From Candidatus Thermosaccharophagus tengchongensis (lineage in GTDB: Bacteria; Armatimonadota; Fervidibacteria; Fervidibacterales; Thermosaccharophagaceae): a stretch of DNA of 19,141 nt. Shown here piece after piece: positions 6,901 through 18,417 of this stretch. The translations under genes and the position numbers were made by a program. The DNA lies in the NCBI GenBank assembly GCA_032161105.1, contig JAVHTD010000034.1; one strand, written 5' to 3'. The first letter of the stretch is position 1. The number at the start of each line of letters is the position of its first letter. The notes under the pieces were generated by a model, which saw only the letters and a program-made list of their open reading frames with translations, was not told the origin of the DNA and did no database searches.

Positions 6901-7608
6901 CGCTTGAGCGAAGCCGCAAGAAAGCGTTTGGAAGCCCTGCGCGAGTTTACCGACTTGGGCTCAGGGTTGCGCTTGGCATTGAGAGACCTTGAGATAAGGG
7001 GCGCTGGCAATTTGCTTGGTCCTGAGCAACACGGCTTCATCAACGATGTCGGCTTTGACCTTTACATGCAAATGCTATCGGAGGCGATAAAGCGTCTCAA
7101 AGGTGAGCCGTTGCCAGAGCGCCCAAAGCTGCCCGAAGCTGACTTGCCAATACGAGCCTTCATACCGGAAAGCTATATTGCCGATGAGATGCAGCGCTTA
7201 AGCATCTACAGGAAGATGGCTGGTGTGCAGACCATTGAGGATGTGAACGCAATTGAGGCAGAGCTTGCCGACCGCTTCGGACGCATACCGATGGAAGTCC
7301 ACAACTTGCTCTCCGTCCTGCGAATCCGAATAAAGGCAAGGAGGGCACATGTGGCTTACATCACGCACGATGGAAGGGATGTGATCGTGAAGTTTTATGG
7401 GGTTAGGAGGCTATCGGATGTTTCGCTTGCGAGAATATACGCAGCAATGCGAAAGCAGTTCTCAGTGGCGACGCTCAATTCGGTCAAATTCCATCACGAT
7501 CAATTCACCGTTGAGTATGGCATGCTGACTGAGCAAACCATGCTCAAGCTGATTGAGAGTTTGCTTGACGCGCTTGCCGAGCATCCTCCAACGCCGCCTC
7601 AGGCGTAG
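3991..7608 (+). CDS. mfd: Transcription-repair coupling factor Mfd
   Basis: UvrB-like N-terminus (GEFSKRGGIVDVF...P.RIEFFGDDVESIREFD..TQRS), RID (GDYVVH..HGIG), DRLICGDVGFGKTEVA, DEEQRFGV, SATPIPRTL, QLRGRVGRS, DLEIRGAGNLLG and a C-terminal TRCF domain. Confidence 0.98.
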   Translation: MRGLLERILSHREFERLLAELNGGAKWLAVDGVRVCGWSVVVAAIGLRLKRTLLVIAPTQQHADRLYEDVRVLWAGADEAVELHPRLYRFPSLGDSIIGRDPDEVSSRERLACLLAIAGRSDCVVIAPVEALIHPTASREAIRKCSIKLRRGSRMPMDALIDGLQSGGYRHAAEVQIVGEFSKRGGIVDVFTPSHELPLRIEFFGDDVESIREFDPQTQRSIRQIEEATIAPAQELPLPQDRSAVASAIIESAEKQAHMLRLSGKGEIARALVEQAKLDAERVMRGSSFEGASWYSLFSSAPLQYLTDHLPDGSIILWLEPHDCMVNCEQTLARLNDVLNDLASTGDVLLPPQSPWIDFDELLRRCKHFPNMLCSIAHEFGAAKLSGLTIPMRDGEVNMPLMRFSIPIHHVESFSGRLRALIGRLLEWLDGGFSVTIVSKHCERIREMIEEFSSDCRREIPLARLSPYEAPRSGVVSLIKGSLSYGFIFQGTSLVVLTDSELFGYPPVRRAKRRFKYTAPIASPNELKSGDYVVHIQHGIGIFRGVVRQKILGSEGDYLLIEYAGGSLLYVPVSQIDRVQRYVGADGGEPALSSLTGTRWVRLRQRAKRGADELARELIELKAMREAGDGFAFSDDSPWQIEMESAFPYEETEDQLRAIEEVKRDMMSPKPMDRLICGDVGFGKTEVAIRAAFKAVQDGKQVAMLVPTTVLAQQHFNTFKQRLAPYPVNIAMLSRFLPQHEQRKVIEGLRIGSVDIVIGTHRLLSDDVKFRDLGLLIIDEEQRFGVRQKEKLKRLNPTVDILVLSATPIPRTLHIALSGLTDISTINSPPIGRRPVRTFLMQYDEDVIRQAILRELERGGQVYYVYNRVDGINHVAEKVKRLVPQARVAVAHGQLPEERLERVMMDFYQRKYDVLVCTTIIENGLDVPNANTLIVEGCERFGLAQLYQLRGRVGRSDRQAYAYLFHEHPRRLSEAARKRLEALREFTDLGSGLRLALRDLEIRGAGNLLGPEQHGFINDVGFDLYMQMLSEAIKRLKGEPLPERPKLPEADLPIRAFIPESYIADEMQRLSIYRKMAGVQTIEDVNAIEAELADRFGRIPMEVHNLLSVLRIRIKARRAHVAYITHDGRDVIVKFYGVRRLSDVSLARIYAAMRKQFSVATLNSVKFHHDQFTVEYGMLTEQTMLKLIESLLDALAEHPPTPPQA

Positions 7609-7737
7609 TTTACTTTGCGCTTTCAGGAGGCTCCAATTTGCCCCTCCCCAAAACCCCGCAAGCGGAATTGCTCAGACGAATGCAGGATTGCCTCTTCGCC
7701 CGCCAGTGAAGTTTGGGTGAGCATCATCCTCGGCGTC

Positions 7738-7765
7738 TTTACAATTGCTCAGAGCGAGCTATACT
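7738..7765 (+). promoter_or_regulatory. Putative sigma70 promoter of the cold-shock gene
   Basis: TTTACA (7738-7743), 16-bp spacer, TATACT (7760-7765). This implies a ~128-nt 5' UTR, and long leaders are typical of csp genes. Confidence 0.65.
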
Positions 7766-7771
7766 GTAAGC

Positions 7772-7902
7772 AGCTGCCGTAATGCAGCAGCACAAGTAGT
7801 TCGTGCCTTCCCCGATGTCATCAAACCGCGTCGGGCTTCCACAAAGCCGAGGCGGTGAAGATGCATTTGGGGCGGGTGGTAGAAAGGAGGTTCGACGCGG
7901 TG
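7772..7902 (+). promoter_or_regulatory. Structured csp 5' UTR with alternative anti-SD helix (candidate RNA thermoswitch)
   Basis: 7825-7840 is complementary to 7886-7901 (SD plus GU of the start codon; 16 bp including 3 G:U). The same segment can alternatively pair with 7844-7856 inside a long 7804-7878 hairpin. A 5' hairpin GCTGC/GCAGC lies at 7773-7788. Confidence 0.6.
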
Positions 7903-8106
7903 AAGAAAGGCACCGTCAAGTGGTTCAACGACCGCAAGGGTTTCGGCTTCATCGCCCAAGATGATGGCGGACAAGATGTGTTCGTGCACTTCTCCGCCAT
8001 TGAGGGTGAAGGTTACAAGACCCTGCGTGAGGGCGACAAAGTTGAGTTTGAGGTTGACTCAACGCCCAAGGGTCTGCGTGCGAAGCGTGTTCGTGTTGTC
8101 CGCTAA
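7900..8106 (+). CDS. Cold-shock protein (CspA family), 68 aa
   Basis: GTVKWFN..KGFGFI (RNP1) and DVFVHFSAI (RNP2), then GYKTL.EG.KVEFEV...KG..A..V. AGGAGG SD at 7885-7890, GTG at 7900. Confidence 0.97.
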
Positions 8107-8143
8107 AGTGATAACATGGTAGCTTTTGCACCGCCCAGGAGAT

Positions 8144-8184
8144 AAGTAACCCATCGCTGCTGCGTGCAGCGGTGGGTTACTTTT
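8144..8184. terminator. Intrinsic terminator hairpin between convergent csp and DUF4139 genes
   Basis: AAGTAACCCATCGCTGC-tgcgt-GCAGCGGTGGGTTACTT forms a 17-bp stem with one G:U on the + strand, ending in TTTT. Confidence 0.8.
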
Positions 8185-8209
8185 ACTATGCACACCTGCT
8201 GACGAAGCG

Positions 8210-9700
8210 CTACGGTAGAAGCCTTACCTTAGCTGTGAATGTGAGCGTTGCCTTGCCGGATGGTGGCACTGGTATCGTGAATTCGGCGGTCATGGCATCC
8301 CTTCTTTTCCATTCATGACTTGACTGCGTTATCTCCCACTCCAAGCCATATCCGAATGGTTGGCGGAGTTGCACGATTACCTCTTTCTCCTTCCCATTCG
8401 TGATGACCACCTCTACTGGCACTTCCCGTTCCTTTGCAGTTAAGGCTGTGAATTTGACCTGCCGCCAAGAGCCGATGATGTCAAATGCGCCGCCTATATC
8501 CAACTCAACCCTTTGTCCCTTGCCTATATGTGCAATTGGTGCCTCGCCGATGAAAATCGGTCTCCCATCAGAGCCGAGCTTATGCAGCTTAACTTTGCCG
8601 GCGGGCAATGGGACACCAAGCCCATGCTTTTCTTCGTTCACAAAGTTGATCATGATTCGCGTCGGGAGCCTTTCCTCTCTGGCTCTCACATCAAACACGA
8701 TTCCGGGTGCCGTAATGACAAACTGCTTCTCCACCTTTGCGCCCCTTGCAGATACGATTCCGAGCCTTAGAGAGCCCCTCCCCTCAAGCGTTACCTTCTG
8801 GGGTATGTCGTAAAGGTGATACTCAAAGAACGGCTCCTCGGTGACTATTCCTTCACCGGGTGCTGGTGCTGCGGCTCTTGCAAACTCAACTTGCCTGCGA
8901 AATTCAGCTCGGTCTCTCAACACCCTCAATACCCCGGCAACAAGTTGCAGCTTGGCATAAGGAAACGACATGTCGGTGTTGTTTTGCACATTTGCGTATC
9001 CAATGAGGTCCATGCTGCTATCCTCTTCGGAAATGGTGGCGATGTAATCGGTGCTCCAGTTCAAGCCGGATGTGATGTAGGTTAAGGAAAGGTTGTGCAT
9101 CCTCGTCTCCTTTGATTTGGCGAAGACGAGCAAGCGCGGCTTTAAGACCATATCCTCCGGCATCTCTGAGAGCACGACCATGCCGGGCGGATATAGCAGG
9201 AGCTTCTCTCCGGCTTTGACCGTTGCAGGGCGAGCGCCATCAACTGCGAGCAATTGCCCCTCAATCTTTTCGGCTATACTTCCATCCTCGGCATAGCGTA
9301 TGATCGTGATCGTTTTTCCAATGCTCTTTTCAAGCAGTGCTGATGGCGTTGGGCGATTGGCAAGCAGTTTGTGCATAGCCATTTGAATGGCTTCGGGCGC
9401 GCTCGTTGATGAAACTTCAACGGAATCAAAGTCCATGTTCGGGGAGACATCCGGGAAGTCAATCACAACTTCTCCCGCCGGAATTAAAGCGCGCCTCATG
9501 TCTCGCACAAGCGCAATGCCCTGATTGTAAATGACGAGCGATAGACCGATGCGTTCGCTTGCGCTCACTGTGCTTGGCTTAGCGGGCGGCTGTTCGGTGG
9601 CAACCTGTGCGTTGAGGGTGAGGCTGTTATGAGGGGGCGTTAGCATGCTCACAAGCATCACACCGACAAACGCCATTGTGAAGCGGTATAGCTTAACCAC
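8210..9700 (-). CDS. Secreted DUF4139/DUF4140-family protein
   Basis: N-terminal signal peptide; LVIYNQGIALVRD.R; LTYITSGLNW..DY; A.V.N.T...F..A.LQLVAG; FEYHLY; GLGVPLPAGKV; FIGE..I.H. AGGAGGTG SD before GTG 9700. Confidence 0.85.
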   Translation of the reverse strand: MVKLYRFTMAFVGVMLVSMLTPPHNSLTLNAQVATEQPPAKPSTVSASERIGLSLVIYNQGIALVRDMRRALIPAGEVVIDFPDVSPNMDFDSVEVSSTSAPEAIQMAMHKLLANRPTPSALLEKSIGKTITIIRYAEDGSIAEKIEGQLLAVDGARPATVKAGEKLLLYPPGMVVLSEMPEDMVLKPRLLVFAKSKETRMHNLSLTYITSGLNWSTDYIATISEEDSSMDLIGYANVQNNTDMSFPYAKLQLVAGVLRVLRDRAEFRRQVEFARAAAPAPGEGIVTEEPFFEYHLYDIPQKVTLEGRGSLRLGIVSARGAKVEKQFVITAPGIVFDVRAREERLPTRIMINFVNEEKHGLGVPLPAGKVKLHKLGSDGRPIFIGEAPIAHIGKGQRVELDIGGAFDIIGSWRQVKFTALTAKEREVPVEVVITNGKEKEVIVQLRQPFGYGLEWEITQSSHEWKRRDAMTAEFTIPVPPSGKATLTFTAKVRLLP

Positions 9701-15175: not shown

Positions 15176-15249
15176 ATTGGTTAGGGTGAAACAGAGCGCA
15201 TGATGATGCTCGCCATCTCAAACCAAAAACATCACGAGTGGTGAGGGAA

Positions 15250-16323
15250 ATGAAATCGCTATGTGCATTCGCAAGCTACCTTATGGTGATGTTGCCGTTT
15301 GTGTTGCTATCTGAAGTGCAAGCAGAGCAGGCTGAGCAGAAGAAGGCATATACAGAGGTCGTCATTTACGATGGCGACTTAAACAATTCTCCGGTTGGGT
15401 TAGCCCTTGGACAGTGGGGAACAGGTTTGGTTGAGGAGGTTGAAGAAAGTGGATATATGTTTCGCAGGAAGACATTGCGGTTGACCTTATACAGCCTTGT
15501 TGAGGGAGGATGTTTCATCTTCAGCAAACCGATTGAAATTGCTTGGAGGCAATCCTCCCTCTACCTTGTGATGTGGGTGAAGTTTGTTGGTGCTCCGCCC
15601 GAGCGCATCCGTGAGGAAACAATCCCGTATGGGACTGCGCCAGAGGTTGGTGGTGCTGCTGAATATCAAATCGGTGTTGGAGTTGGTGTTCCCGGAAGCC
15701 CGCCTGCCGCTCCTACAACCACTGTGGGCAAGGTGAGTGCCAATTTAACCAAGCTGCGTTTAGTGCTTGACTTTGGGAGAGGTTGGAGTGAGGTCAACTA
15801 TGAAGTCCCGTTCGGCATTTTGAAACCGGATCAGACTGGTTGGGTGCGCTTGCCAATACCTTTGGCTAACGCTCGCGGGCTTCCAATTGAGCCGGGTGTA
15901 AAGCTGCAGCGCATGTTAATCGGGGCTGACAAATCCGATGAGTTATTCGTCGGGCGGATGATGCTTGTGCATGATGATGAGCCGCTGAGCGTCAACATCA
16001 AAAGTTCGTGGCGTGAGGAATACGACTTTGATGTTTCGCGCAACATTGAGGAGGTGCGTCATCTCCCCAAAGTCTTCATCGGCACGTTCGCAATGCCAAT
16101 TGATTTCCTTGTTGAGGTTAACGAGGGTGCGTCAATAACGGAGGTGCTTTGGGACTTTGATAAATCAGACGGTGTTAACTGGGAGAAGCCAAACGCAAAA
16201 GGAAATGCAGTTCGCTGGTTCTATCCTAAACCGGCAACTTACATTATGACCATAATGGTGAGAGACCTGCTTGGGTTGAAAGAGTCACTCGTGATTGAGC
16301 GGAAGGTGAAGGTGGTTAAGTAG
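15250..16323 (+). CDS. Hypothetical secreted protein: probable beta-sandwich (carbohydrate-binding-like) domain plus C-terminal PKD-like domain
   Basis: Signal peptide MKSLCAFASYLMVMLPFVLLSEVQA; a Pro/Thr/Gly-rich insert; GWVRLPIPL; and C-terminal WDFD..DG...Y.KP.TY..T..V.D, which resembles PKD repeats. Confidence 0.6.
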   Translation: MKSLCAFASYLMVMLPFVLLSEVQAEQAEQKKAYTEVVIYDGDLNNSPVGLALGQWGTGLVEEVEESGYMFRRKTLRLTLYSLVEGGCFIFSKPIEIAWRQSSLYLVMWVKFVGAPPERIREETIPYGTAPEVGGAAEYQIGVGVGVPGSPPAAPTTTVGKVSANLTKLRLVLDFGRGWSEVNYEVPFGILKPDQTGWVRLPIPLANARGLPIEPGVKLQRMLIGADKSDELFVGRMMLVHDDEPLSVNIKSSWREEYDFDVSRNIEEVRHLPKVFIGTFAMPIDFLVEVNEGASITEVLWDFDKSDGVNWEKPNAKGNAVRWFYPKPATYIMTIMVRDLLGLKESLVIERKVKVVK

Positions 16324-16609: not shown

Positions 16610-17620
16610 ATGGATTTGCCAATGCAGGTGGAGGGAGCCAATCACTGTGGTTTTAGTGCGGGATTGCCATCAGTTCTTGAAAGGCTGCACCAATTTGGGA
16701 GGCTCCCGAGAAAGGATTTGCTCGGGATGCGTGATTTGTCTGCGGATGAGATTGAACTCATTTTAGATGTCGCCGATTTCATGAAGGAAGCCCTCGCGAA
16801 AGATCTTAAAGCCCTGTCTGAATGCCTGAAGGGGAAATCTCTGGCTACAGCGTTCTATGAGCCAAGCACACGCACAAGGACTTCATTTGAGAGGGCTGGG
16901 AAGGCGCTCGGAATGAGTGTTACCAATTTGCCAATTGATGTGAGCAGCGTTGCGAAGGGAGAATCGCTTAAGGACACCGCATTGACTCTTCAGGCGGTTG
17001 GATATGATGCCATCGTGATACGCCACTGGGCATCTGGTGCTCCGCATTTCGTTGCGAGGTATGTTTCGGCTTCAGTCATCAATGCTGGCGATGGGATGCA
17101 TGAACATCCAACACAAGCGCTGCTTGACCTTTACACGATGCGCAAGTTTAAGGGCAGATTGCACGGTCTAAAGGTCGCCATCATTGGGGATATACTCCAC
17201 AGCCGTGTGGCACGCTCAATCGTCTTTGCACTGAGCAAATTCAGCTCCGACATCGTCGTGTGTGGTCCGCCGACAATGCTCCCGGAAGCGTTTTCAGAAT
17301 TCGGCGTTAAGGTCACAAGGCGAACCGAGGAAGCAATTGAGGGTGCAGATATCATTTACATGTTGCGCATGCAGCTTGAAAGACAACGGGTTGGTCTATT
17401 CCCATCAATAGGTGAGTATGCGAAGTTGTATGGGATGGATCTTGAGAAATTGCGCTTCGCTCCTGAGGATGCGATTATCATGCATCCGGGACCGATGAAC
17501 CGAGGCGTTGAAATTTCATCGGATATCGCTGACAGTGATAAAGCGCGCATCCTTGACCAAGTGACCAACGGCGTCGCCGTCAGGATGGCAGTTTTGTGGC
17601 TGCTTTTGAGCGAACATTAG
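16610..17620 (+). CDS. pyrB: Aspartate carbamoyltransferase catalytic subunit
   Basis: FYEPSTRTRTSFE, SSVAKGESLKDT, IRH, NAGDGMHEHPTQALLD, GDILHSRVARS, LR.Q.ER, MHPGPMNRGVEI, QVTNGVAVRMA. GAGGAGG SD at 16594-16600. Confidence 0.97.
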   Translation: MDLPMQVEGANHCGFSAGLPSVLERLHQFGRLPRKDLLGMRDLSADEIELILDVADFMKEALAKDLKALSECLKGKSLATAFYEPSTRTRTSFERAGKALGMSVTNLPIDVSSVAKGESLKDTALTLQAVGYDAIVIRHWASGAPHFVARYVSASVINAGDGMHEHPTQALLDLYTMRKFKGRLHGLKVAIIGDILHSRVARSIVFALSKFSSDIVVCGPPTMLPEAFSEFGVKVTRRTEEAIEGADIIYMLRMQLERQRVGLFPSIGEYAKLYGMDLEKLRFAPEDAIIMHPGPMNRGVEISSDIADSDKARILDQVTNGVAVRMAVLWLLLSEH

Positions 17621-17634
17621 GGAAGGTGCTCGTG

Positions 17635-18417
17635 ATGACAGCGACCGATTGGAAAACTCAAGTTGTTGACCATGAACTGCGCCAATACATAGAAGCGAAC
17701 TGGCAACGCATTTTGGAGTTGTTTGCACCACAACATTTGATTGTTTTCGGCTCTCGTGTCAACGGTTCGGCAAGACCAGACAGCGACATTGACTTAATTG
17801 TCGTTTCTGACACCTTTGAGGGCATACCGTTTTTTGAGCGCTCTCGCAGATTCAACGGGCAAATCCCTTGGCACTTGCGAGTGGATGCGTGGTGCTACAC
17901 TGTCAAGGAATTTGAGCAATTGCGACGGCAAATTGGGATAGTTGCCGATGCTTGTCGGGAAGGGTTGTGGCTCATCAAAGGTGAGTTGCTCTCCGATGAA
18001 GAGGTGGGCAGTGTGATGACGCCCGAAGAACAAGCACGAAGATGGATAGCGCAGGGAGACCATGACTTAAACCTTGCCCGCGTTGCTCACGAAAATAACA
18101 GTTACGAGTGGGCTGCAGCCATTGCACAACAGGCTGCTGAGAAGTTTCTCAAAGCCCTATACATTGTCCGCTTCCAAGCAACACCACCACGAACGCGTGA
18201 CCTTGTGATGTTAGCGAACGCTTTAGGTGCACCACCTGAACTGGCAGCCGTCGGACGACCGTTGACCGAAGATTATTTGCGTGCTCGCTACCCTGACATT
18301 GCTGGTGGCATCCCACATGAGGTTTTTGATACAACTACGGCTCAAGAGCGAATCGCCCAAGCAGAAAAAATTCGCGATTGGGTTATTCAGCAACTTGAGC
18401 AAGGTGGTTCACCATGA
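17635..18417 (+). CDS. Fused minimal nucleotidyltransferase (MNT) - HEPN domain protein
   Basis: N-terminal half FGSRVNGSARPDSDIDL (GSx10DxD). C-terminal half W..Q...DL..A.......YEWA...AQQAAEK.LKA...Y..ARYPD...A......A is a HEPN of the COG2250-like type. No stop between the halves. Confidence 0.88.
   Translation: MTATDWKTQVVDHELRQYIEANWQRILELFAPQHLIVFGSRVNGSARPDSDIDLIVVSDTFEGIPFFERSRRFNGQIPWHLRVDAWCYTVKEFEQLRRQIGIVADACREGLWLIKGELLSDEEVGSVMTPEEQARRWIAQGDHDLNLARVAHENNSYEWAAAIAQQAAEKFLKALYIVRFQATPPRTRDLVMLANALGAPPELAAVGRPLTEDYLRARYPDIAGGIPHEVFDTTTAQERIAQAEKIRDWVIQQLEQGGSP

Follow-up and report, generated by a model that had tools for sequence, protein, structure and literature searches.

The leader of a cold-shock (csp) gene of Candidatus Thermosaccharophagus tengchongensis, located in a stretch of 19,141 nucleotides (the window), has two alternative folds, one that leaves the Shine-Dalgarno sequence (SD) free (ON) and one that pairs it with an upstream anti-SD strand (OFF). 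We are nearly certain that this two-state structure is real and under selection. Judging from folding models, it probably serves as a cis-acting translational switch of the csp mRNA that is ON in the cold, retuned for a hot-spring host and possibly assisted by Csp.

The csp transcript and its two folds

The features of the locus are listed in Table 1. The csp product scored below the cut-offs of the named CspA-CspE equivalogs, and its gene is flanked by mfd and by a convergent DUF4139-like gene. The promoter is kept in three congeners (L002-L004), with similar boxes at an equal distance, and places the likely transcription start site (TSS) near 7772, that is, 5' of the anti-SD strand. Terminator-like hairpins were also found 3' of csp in L002-L004, and promoter and terminator together suggest a monocistronic csp mRNA of about 410 nt. 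The short 5'-terminal hairpin has counterparts of different sequence at the equivalent place in L003 and L004 and likely protects the 5' end. A strain contig differed from the window by 13 substitutions across 7400-8367, with none within 7698-8103. A search of the leader revealed no terminator inside it; a leader peptide or attenuator was rejected on this ground and also because the upstream AUGs of the group C leaders described below are not kept in frame, as judged by eye.

Table 1. Features of the csp locus and their coordinates in the window
Feature	Position	Strand	Remarks
Sigma-70-like promoter TTTACA-16-TATACT	7738..7765	+	10/12 matches; 0.3 expected in shuffles
Short 5'-terminal hairpin	7773..7791	+	z -2.1
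ON hairpin, long irregular stem sequestering the anti-SD	7804..7878	+	From folding, z = -4.4
Anti-SD strand	7825..7840	+	Pairs with 7886-7901; anti-GGAGG part 7836-7840 at hairpin tip
Decoy strand (3' arm of ON tip)	7844..7861	+	Direct repeat (family D2, spacing 45)
In-frame upstream AUG	7861..7863	+	39 nt 5' of main start, buried when ON forms; shared by 4/4 genus leaders
SD GGAGGU, spacer and GUG start (3' strand of OFF helix)	7886..7902	+	Complementary to the genome's 16S 3' end
Weak local hairpin over start codon	7897..7916	+	z -1.3, not significant alone
csp gene	7900..8106	+	68 aa, one cold-shock domain; PF00313, 100 bits
Intrinsic terminator	8144..8186	+	17-bp stem, U tract (inverted repeat I1)

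The host is a thermophile, as the first-pass annotation of the window had supposed: a reverse gyrase well above its cut-off is encoded, and hot-spring metagenomes account for 18 of the 19 runs containing the stretch. The 16S G+C content is 62.6%, and the class has two named families according to the accessible part of PMC11535203. Sister-family proteins bear the name Fervidibacter and the Csp of the congener the label Armatimonadota, which probably puts the genus of the window in Thermosaccharophagaceae. The sole RNA run (share 0.07) held csp pieces of other organisms only, with no coverage of the leader. Elsewhere in the window, 385-2267 is a polyamine cluster of a kind typical of thermophiles, with a pyruvoyl arginine decarboxylase (PF01862), an AdoMet decarboxylase (PF02675) and one further ORF, which we take to be spermidine-synthase-like. 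A single ORF at 17596-18417 combines a nucleotidyltransferase (PF01909) with a HEPN domain (PF05168) and resembles an MNT-HEPN toxin-antitoxin pair in fused form. A 361-aa ORF at 15238-16323 matched neither Pfam nor NCBIfam; its N terminus is like a signal peptide.

The OFF helix is the one described in the first-pass annotation, all of whose quoted strings were found in place: it is gapless, with 16 bp of which three are G:U (7834, 7835 and 7837), spans GGAGG and the GU of the GUG start, and was recovered also as inverted repeat I2. The tip pairing that had been given for ON is present but gapped, since it consists of ACCGC/GCGGU, a 1x1 mismatch, UCGG/CCGA, a bulge and CUU/AAG. The ON hairpin itself (7805-7877) was the minimum-energy fold from 37 to 75 °C and left the SD free as proposed, but the start codon is covered in it by a weak 6-bp hairpin (7897-7902 with 7911-7916). 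Opening the SD alone in ON was computed to cost about 2 kcal/mol, and opening the whole footprint 4-10 kcal/mol. Only 1 of 200 shuffles gave a hairpin as stable as ON, and folding supported the claim that ON and OFF are mutually exclusive. Within the decoy, 7848-7861 repeats the spacer/start region 7893-7906 at 13 of 14 positions.

Comparison with chance and with related leaders

The duplex that the ribosome-binding site (RBS) forms with the region upstream of it has an energy of -31.8 kcal/mol. This value was equalled by none of 504 other ORFs of the genome (long ORFs with GGAGG; mean -12.1, best -25.6), by none of 5000 dinucleotide shuffles, and none of 154 distinct csp leaders of other lineages reached even -20. 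The 154 leaders were derived from 165 loci, 6 of which were dropped (short flank or no start) and 5 of which were duplicate or unmatched; scans of metagenomes and of a genome collection with the Csp protein yielded mostly distant csp genes, which were used as background and not as homologues. The second-strongest RBS-sequestering duplex of the genome (-25.6 kcal/mol) lies near 29018 (+) of G000:C13, 5' of a long ORF, and could mark another regulated leader.

The competing fold was examined in 12 of 37 leaders by keeping anti-SD, RBS and coding sequence fixed while the flanks were shuffled. OFF then dominated in all 12, with a median probability, P(OFF), of 0.92-1.0 at 30 °C, and none of 40 flank shuffles was as low in OFF as the window leader; the natural leaders are ON. 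The ON competitor is thus specific and built for its job.

The csp genes in 24 genomes of the Fervidibacter order fall into four groups, A1, A2, B and C. A1, to which the window gene belongs, adjoins mfd and is present in 4/4 genomes of the genus, and A2 is present in 19 of 20 genomes of the sister family; 13 B leaders were used and 8 C leaders examined. An ungapped anti-SD helix of 9-17 bp in the same register was found in 36/36 A1, A2 and B leaders (35 of them distinct), representing 23 of the 24 genomes, with the anti-SD 47-68 nt 5' of the SD. At SD positions 4-11, 287 of 288 cells were paired, though the kin among these 36 leaders are not independent. Changes that preserve pairing were seen at position 10 (U-A/U-G/C-G) and position 11 (G-C/G-U/A-U/U-A), and by eye one pair is missing from either strand in L120 and L123. 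In all homologous leaders the helix is opposed by a long upstream hairpin with the anti-SD at its tip, equivalent ON hairpins being present in all 4 genus leaders and in those of the sister family. The genus hairpins were compared by eye only, because MAFFT misaligned the ON tip.

Pairing in all groups was far above that in slid registers, although kinship inflates the counts. Covariation across orthologous leaders, proposed as a check in the first-pass annotation, went beyond shuffles in B, where OFF was 98% paired and 1 and 5 of 500 shuffles were as high. It was modest in A2 (OFF 99% paired, 40/500 shuffles as high) and uninformative in A1, where 64/64 OFF cells were paired in four sequences with no two-sided change. 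The A2 ON fold, 89% paired, was not beyond shuffles (35-476 of 500 as high).

A covariance model of the A2 leaders (R1) detected the B leaders (E 4e-4 per genome). On the window leader it scored 7.8 bits (E 4.3) through the SD part only, and on L003 and L004 it gave E 0.022; no homologous ON hairpin was detected by it. Among the 121 genomes searched, R1 gave one doubtful match in other genomes, in G051 (E 0.028), which was rejected since it lies 5' of a non-csp ORF and looks like chance. An A1 model (R2), searched against 101 genomes, matched the 4 leaders of the genus alone, each in a single copy, and no sister-family leader. Outside the class the models of the leader gave nothing. Sequence and register of the anti-SD/SD helix are nevertheless shared between the window leader and the A2 and B csp leaders of Fervidibacteraceae. 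Since the models do not detect each other's ON hairpins, the helix is common to the class and the ON hairpin has been rebuilt in the genus. A Csp tree (75 columns) set A2 and B apart from the rest; it provides neither a root nor proof of a single origin.

In group C, 7 of the 8 leaders, including that of the second csp gene of this genome, are without a strong anti-SD helix, and these seven are left out of the counts for helix, temperature and hairpin tip; the 37 leaders are the 36 above plus L027. This remaining group C leader (L027:1353-1494, in G016) has the same two-state design in unrelated sequence: a 16-bp anti-SD helix, the anti-SD in the loop of a long hairpin and a decoy copy of the spacer, with P(OFF) predicted to increase from 0.00 to 0.92 between 30 and 80 °C. 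No A2 or B gene was found in G016, a genome 83% complete. The sequences suggest that the switch of L027 had an independent origin.

Two further kinds of csp leader were noticed. That of the second csp of this genome, L031 (G000:C15), and those of L117-L119 are long and highly structured with conserved helices; the L031 leader has short strings in common with the window leader, and another regulatory RNA may sit there. The csp leaders of L018, L024 and L025, from other families of the phylum, have several CC(U)UCGG(U)-like repeats and no anti-SD helix; the repeats may be bound by protein or may form another conserved leader motif.

The hairpin tip was analyzed in nascent RNA that ends before the SD. 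The anti-GGAGG part was less paired than the anti-spacer part in 30 of 37 leaders (all 23 of A1 and A2, 6 of 13 B, and L027) and was fully looped out in L003 and L004. The apical loop is UCCAC in the window leader and ACUUCC in L003 and L004. Positions 7836-7840 are therefore a candidate toehold, and the looped anti-GGAGG together with the decoy suggests the layout of toehold-initiated strand displacement. In many A2 leaders (e.g. L007:1386-1491) the ON fold presents GGAGG in a small hairpin loop, and the A2 decoy arm has a GGAGG of its own with no start codon following.

Predicted response to temperature and competing explanations

The predicted OFF share increased between 30 and 70 °C in 35 of 37 leaders, and the median ON/OFF free-energy gap (ddG) fell from 3.5 kcal/mol at 30 °C to 0.0 at 70 °C, so that the median balance lies near 70 °C. 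P(OFF) exceeded 0.5 in 6 leaders at 30 °C, 18 at 70 °C and 21 at 80 °C, at which 12 of the 13 B leaders were mostly OFF. L003 and L004 never switched (P(OFF) at most 0.015), and L120 and L123 were predicted OFF at all temperatures. The gain of rare folds with heat is partly a generic effect.

With default parameters P(OFF) of the window leader was 0.00-0.03 at 30-50 °C; with 30 nt added it rose from 0.00 at 30-45 °C to 0.08 at 70-80 °C. The claim that heat shifts the leader toward OFF agrees in direction with the prediction for nearly all leaders. The window leader itself never switched with default parameters: P(OFF) was at most 0.24 for any 3' end and at most 0.01 for the full mRNA, ON being favoured by 2-3 kcal/mol even at 60-80 °C. 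The best single ON and OFF folds were equal in energy at 65-75 °C, and the middle ON stem, 0.98 paired at 45 °C, was 0.40 paired at 80 °C. With the leader taken to 7910, P(OFF) at 70-80 °C was 0.60-0.73 with Turner 1999 (0.73 at 80 °C) and 0.47-0.67 with Andronescu 2007 (0.67 at 80 °C), whereas Langdon 2018 gave the opposite, a falling trend, for this shortest construct; for one construct at 80 °C the values ranged from 0.02 to 0.73 according to the parameter set. The full window mRNA remained below 0.3 in all four sets. The predicted direction fits a cold-ON switch near growth temperature, and the size of the effect in the window leader lies within model error.

Transcripts with a 3' end at 7860, before the SD exists, had P(ON) of 0.87-0.99 at 45-70 °C, in line with the view of the first-pass annotation that ON forms first during transcription. 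The further assumption that ON is kinetically trapped in the cold was not supported: in the default model ON is the equilibrium fold at 30-50 °C, and therefore no trap is needed. If anything, the kinetic problem would be the ON-to-OFF step at high temperature. The findpath barriers were 30 kcal/mol at 45 °C and 19-20 at 70 °C, values that are upper bounds, as the paths exclude loop-toehold (pseudoknotted) intermediates; barriers of this height suggest that a chaperone could matter.

In the cold-ON switch that we favour, the transcribed leader is computed to fold into the long ON hairpin, the anti-SD being tied up before the SD exists. Below growth temperature ON is predicted to be stable with the SD open, and Csp would be made. 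Around growth temperature, fraying of the basal and middle stems, which are rich in mismatches, would give the SD slack to reach the tip pyrimidines, whereupon the SD/spacer/start strand would displace the decoy, its near-copy, giving the continuous 16-bp OFF helix that would block the 30S subunit. Csp or another RNA chaperone probably assists this displacement, by analogy with S. aureus. In the genus of the window it likely works by graded damping and not by tight locking. A more specific version is tentative and in our judgement doubtful: a protein-independent toehold strand-displacement thermoswitch set at about 65-75 °C, with the RBS copy as decoy, the toehold gated by fraying of the lower stem, and the set points of paralogues tuned by OFF-helix length, evolved at least twice in the class (L027 being the other case). 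The OFF helix has 11 bp in A2, abundant at 80 °C, and 14-17 bp in most B leaders, which appear repressed.

The expression data available are from F. sacchari, grown routinely at 80 °C with a range of 65-87.5 °C (PMC11535203, accessible part). Its three csp mRNAs had similar means (3206, 2237 and 2036; Supplementary Data 4 and 5), and its Csp proteins averaged 21.5, 20.3 and 15.9, apparently on a log2 scale. RNA was from mid-exponential and protein from early stationary cultures, chilled at harvest, at a single temperature. The low-protein Csp is of B type (accession common to P0020); its mRNA was like that of its paralogues and its protein signal 21-50-fold less, intensities not being comparable between proteins. 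This fits repression of the B leaders, predicted mostly OFF at 80 °C. No locus in our set encodes the F. sacchari B protein exactly, and its leader was judged from those of relatives. The A2 protein is, by elimination, one of the two abundant at 80 °C, so the A2 leader does not close tightly; L017, the product of which is identical to a protein named from that species, was predicted ON (P(OFF) 0.03 at 80 °C). The data at 80 °C thus fit repression for one paralogue and not for the other.

Among the competing explanations, temperature alone might do little, and Csp, from its own or the second gene, might melt ON and drive OFF, making the system a negative autoregulation by Csp level or growth phase. 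A helper may indeed be needed, given the default-model preference for ON at 60-80 °C and the high barrier; CspA is required for the locked fold of the S. aureus leaders at 37 °C (PMC8034633, accessible part), the second csp of this genome lacks a helix of this kind, and the B-type protein varied about 7-fold with carbon source at one temperature. On the other hand, the UCCAC loop of the window leader has no U-rich tract such as the UUUGUUU site of S. aureus, the predicted balance points cluster near growth temperature across leaders, and Listeria cspA switches without protein in vitro according to the accessible part of PMC8722363. We regard such feedback as unlikely, and it and the cold-ON switch are not mutually exclusive. 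In the kinetic timer of the first-pass annotation OFF is the ground state and ON a trap entered during transcription, which lasts long in the cold and briefly in the heat, and its duration sets the number of proteins per mRNA. This model would draw on the formation of ON before the SD is transcribed, on a barrier of 30 kcal/mol at 45 °C that has dropped to 19 at 70 °C and on the 6 of 37 homologues predicted OFF at equilibrium even at 30 °C; with the window ON fold having the lower free energy at 30-55 °C under three of the four parameter sets, it is improbable.

There might also be no regulated switch in the genus, ON being formed almost always and OFF being a small constant damper, or a decay or Rho-termination signal for mRNAs in which the hairpin has failed. 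P(OFF) was low in 3 of the 4 genus leaders, A2-type Csp is abundant in F. sacchari at 80 °C and Rho is encoded; yet the genus OFF helix, 16 bp with every cell paired, is longer than that of A2 and covers spacer bases under no other evident constraint, where a purposeless helix should decay, and we hold this possibility to be very improbable. Riboswitches typically have two-state expression platforms, a likeness that might point to a ligand riboswitch. The three groups share sequence only in the anti-SD and SD strands, and because of this and of ON hairpins that are not mutually detectable there is no conserved aptamer; chance complementarity is excluded by the genome ORFs, the shuffles, the csp leaders and the 36/36 homologues. 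A riboswitch, a small-RNA target or chance is accordingly an extremely improbable origin of the pairing. As to the upstream AUG, it is less likely that in the genus OFF exposes a second SD-like site and this AUG, yielding a Csp 13 residues longer. The AUG is in frame with no stops to the main start in 4/4 genus leaders and is preceded by an SD-like GGUG, and no in-frame upstream AUG was seen by eye in the sister-family alignments. Since it costs 6-8 kcal/mol to open in OFF and has a weaker SD, a switch of start site is only a minor possibility, and the AUG is probably structural.

Relation to known cold-shock leaders

The window gave no Rfam match at gathering score, in agreement with the statement of the first-pass annotation that no described family was recognised. 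Membership in RF01766 was rejected, as its match reached 46.9 bits where the gathering score is 78 and was due to coding region and terminator rather than to the leader; apart from this cspA match, a scan by E-value returned four chance matches only. No account of csp leaders in this class was found in the open-access literature (subscription journals lay outside the scope), and the accessible parts of PMC9411577, PMC3965559 and PMC13594980 hold nothing on this leader. For the ttcsp2 5' UTR of Thermus thermophilus (Mega et al. 2010, as cited in the accessible part of PMC9800685) a structure change on temperature downshift is described as predicted only.

In the open-access literature covered, probing of RNA switches activated by cold is confined to mesophiles, with set points near 30 °C, and the one case from a thermophile is predicted. 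The present family comprises dozens of natural variants, its design of two helices is clean, and a hyperthermophilic relative, F. sacchari, is in culture; therefore both the retuning by some 40 degrees and the contributions of heat alone and of Csp are testable. Should the leader work as naked RNA, thermophile engineering would also gain from it a compact control part that is inducible by cold.

The leader has the architecture of the csp alternative-fold class: it is the 5' UTR of a csp gene, with the TSS placed from the promoter, and computation and comparison give it an anti-RBS hairpin and an anti-RBS:RBS helix that exclude each other. The first-pass annotation had taken E. coli cspA as the nearest model, a place that belongs rather to S. 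aureus cspB/cspC and L. monocytogenes cspA, which have the same architecture (PMC8034633 and PMC8722363, accessible parts); the mechanism is thus less new than had been implied. In E. coli cspA and cspB/cspG/cspI, as far as the accessible part of PMC13271884 describes them, the cold fold frees the RBS and start codon and the warm fold sequesters them, as here; cspG, cspB and cspI shift register between a shorter hairpin within the UTR and a longer one, and the warm folds take in coding sequence, whereas OFF of the window leader is confined to UTR and start codon. The cspA 5' UTR of L. monocytogenes likewise has open and closed folds, the closed one hiding the SD at higher temperature, an architecture established by probing and mutants, but switches near 30 °C in vitro and protein-free (PMC8722363, accessible part); its sequence was compared via Rfam only.

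The closest likeness is to S. aureus cspB/cspC, for which the accessible part of PMC8034633 reports two exclusive folds demonstrated by probing and mutants. There too, an open fold with a long 5' hairpin hides the anti-RBS in the csp 5' UTR and a locked fold pairs anti-RBS with RBS, the hairpin tip joins the locked pairing, and two paralogues have the switch in common, like A2 and B of the sister family. The S. aureus family is reportedly limited by sequence to Staphylococcus; it is rich in U, has UUUGUUU as its CspA site and switches between 22 and 37 °C. The window leader, by contrast, has about 60% G+C and no U-rich CspA site in its apical loop; its 16-bp helix extends to the start codon, an SD-mimic decoy is present, and the balance is predicted near 65-75 °C. 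The authors of that study propose that such switches are widespread without sequence similarity (PMC8034633, same part). The two-fold design of csp leaders is itself already known from Staphylococcus and Listeria and is no new regulatory principle; what is new is an unrelated GC-rich family with comparative support, whose loop toehold and SD-mimic decoy suggest strand displacement.
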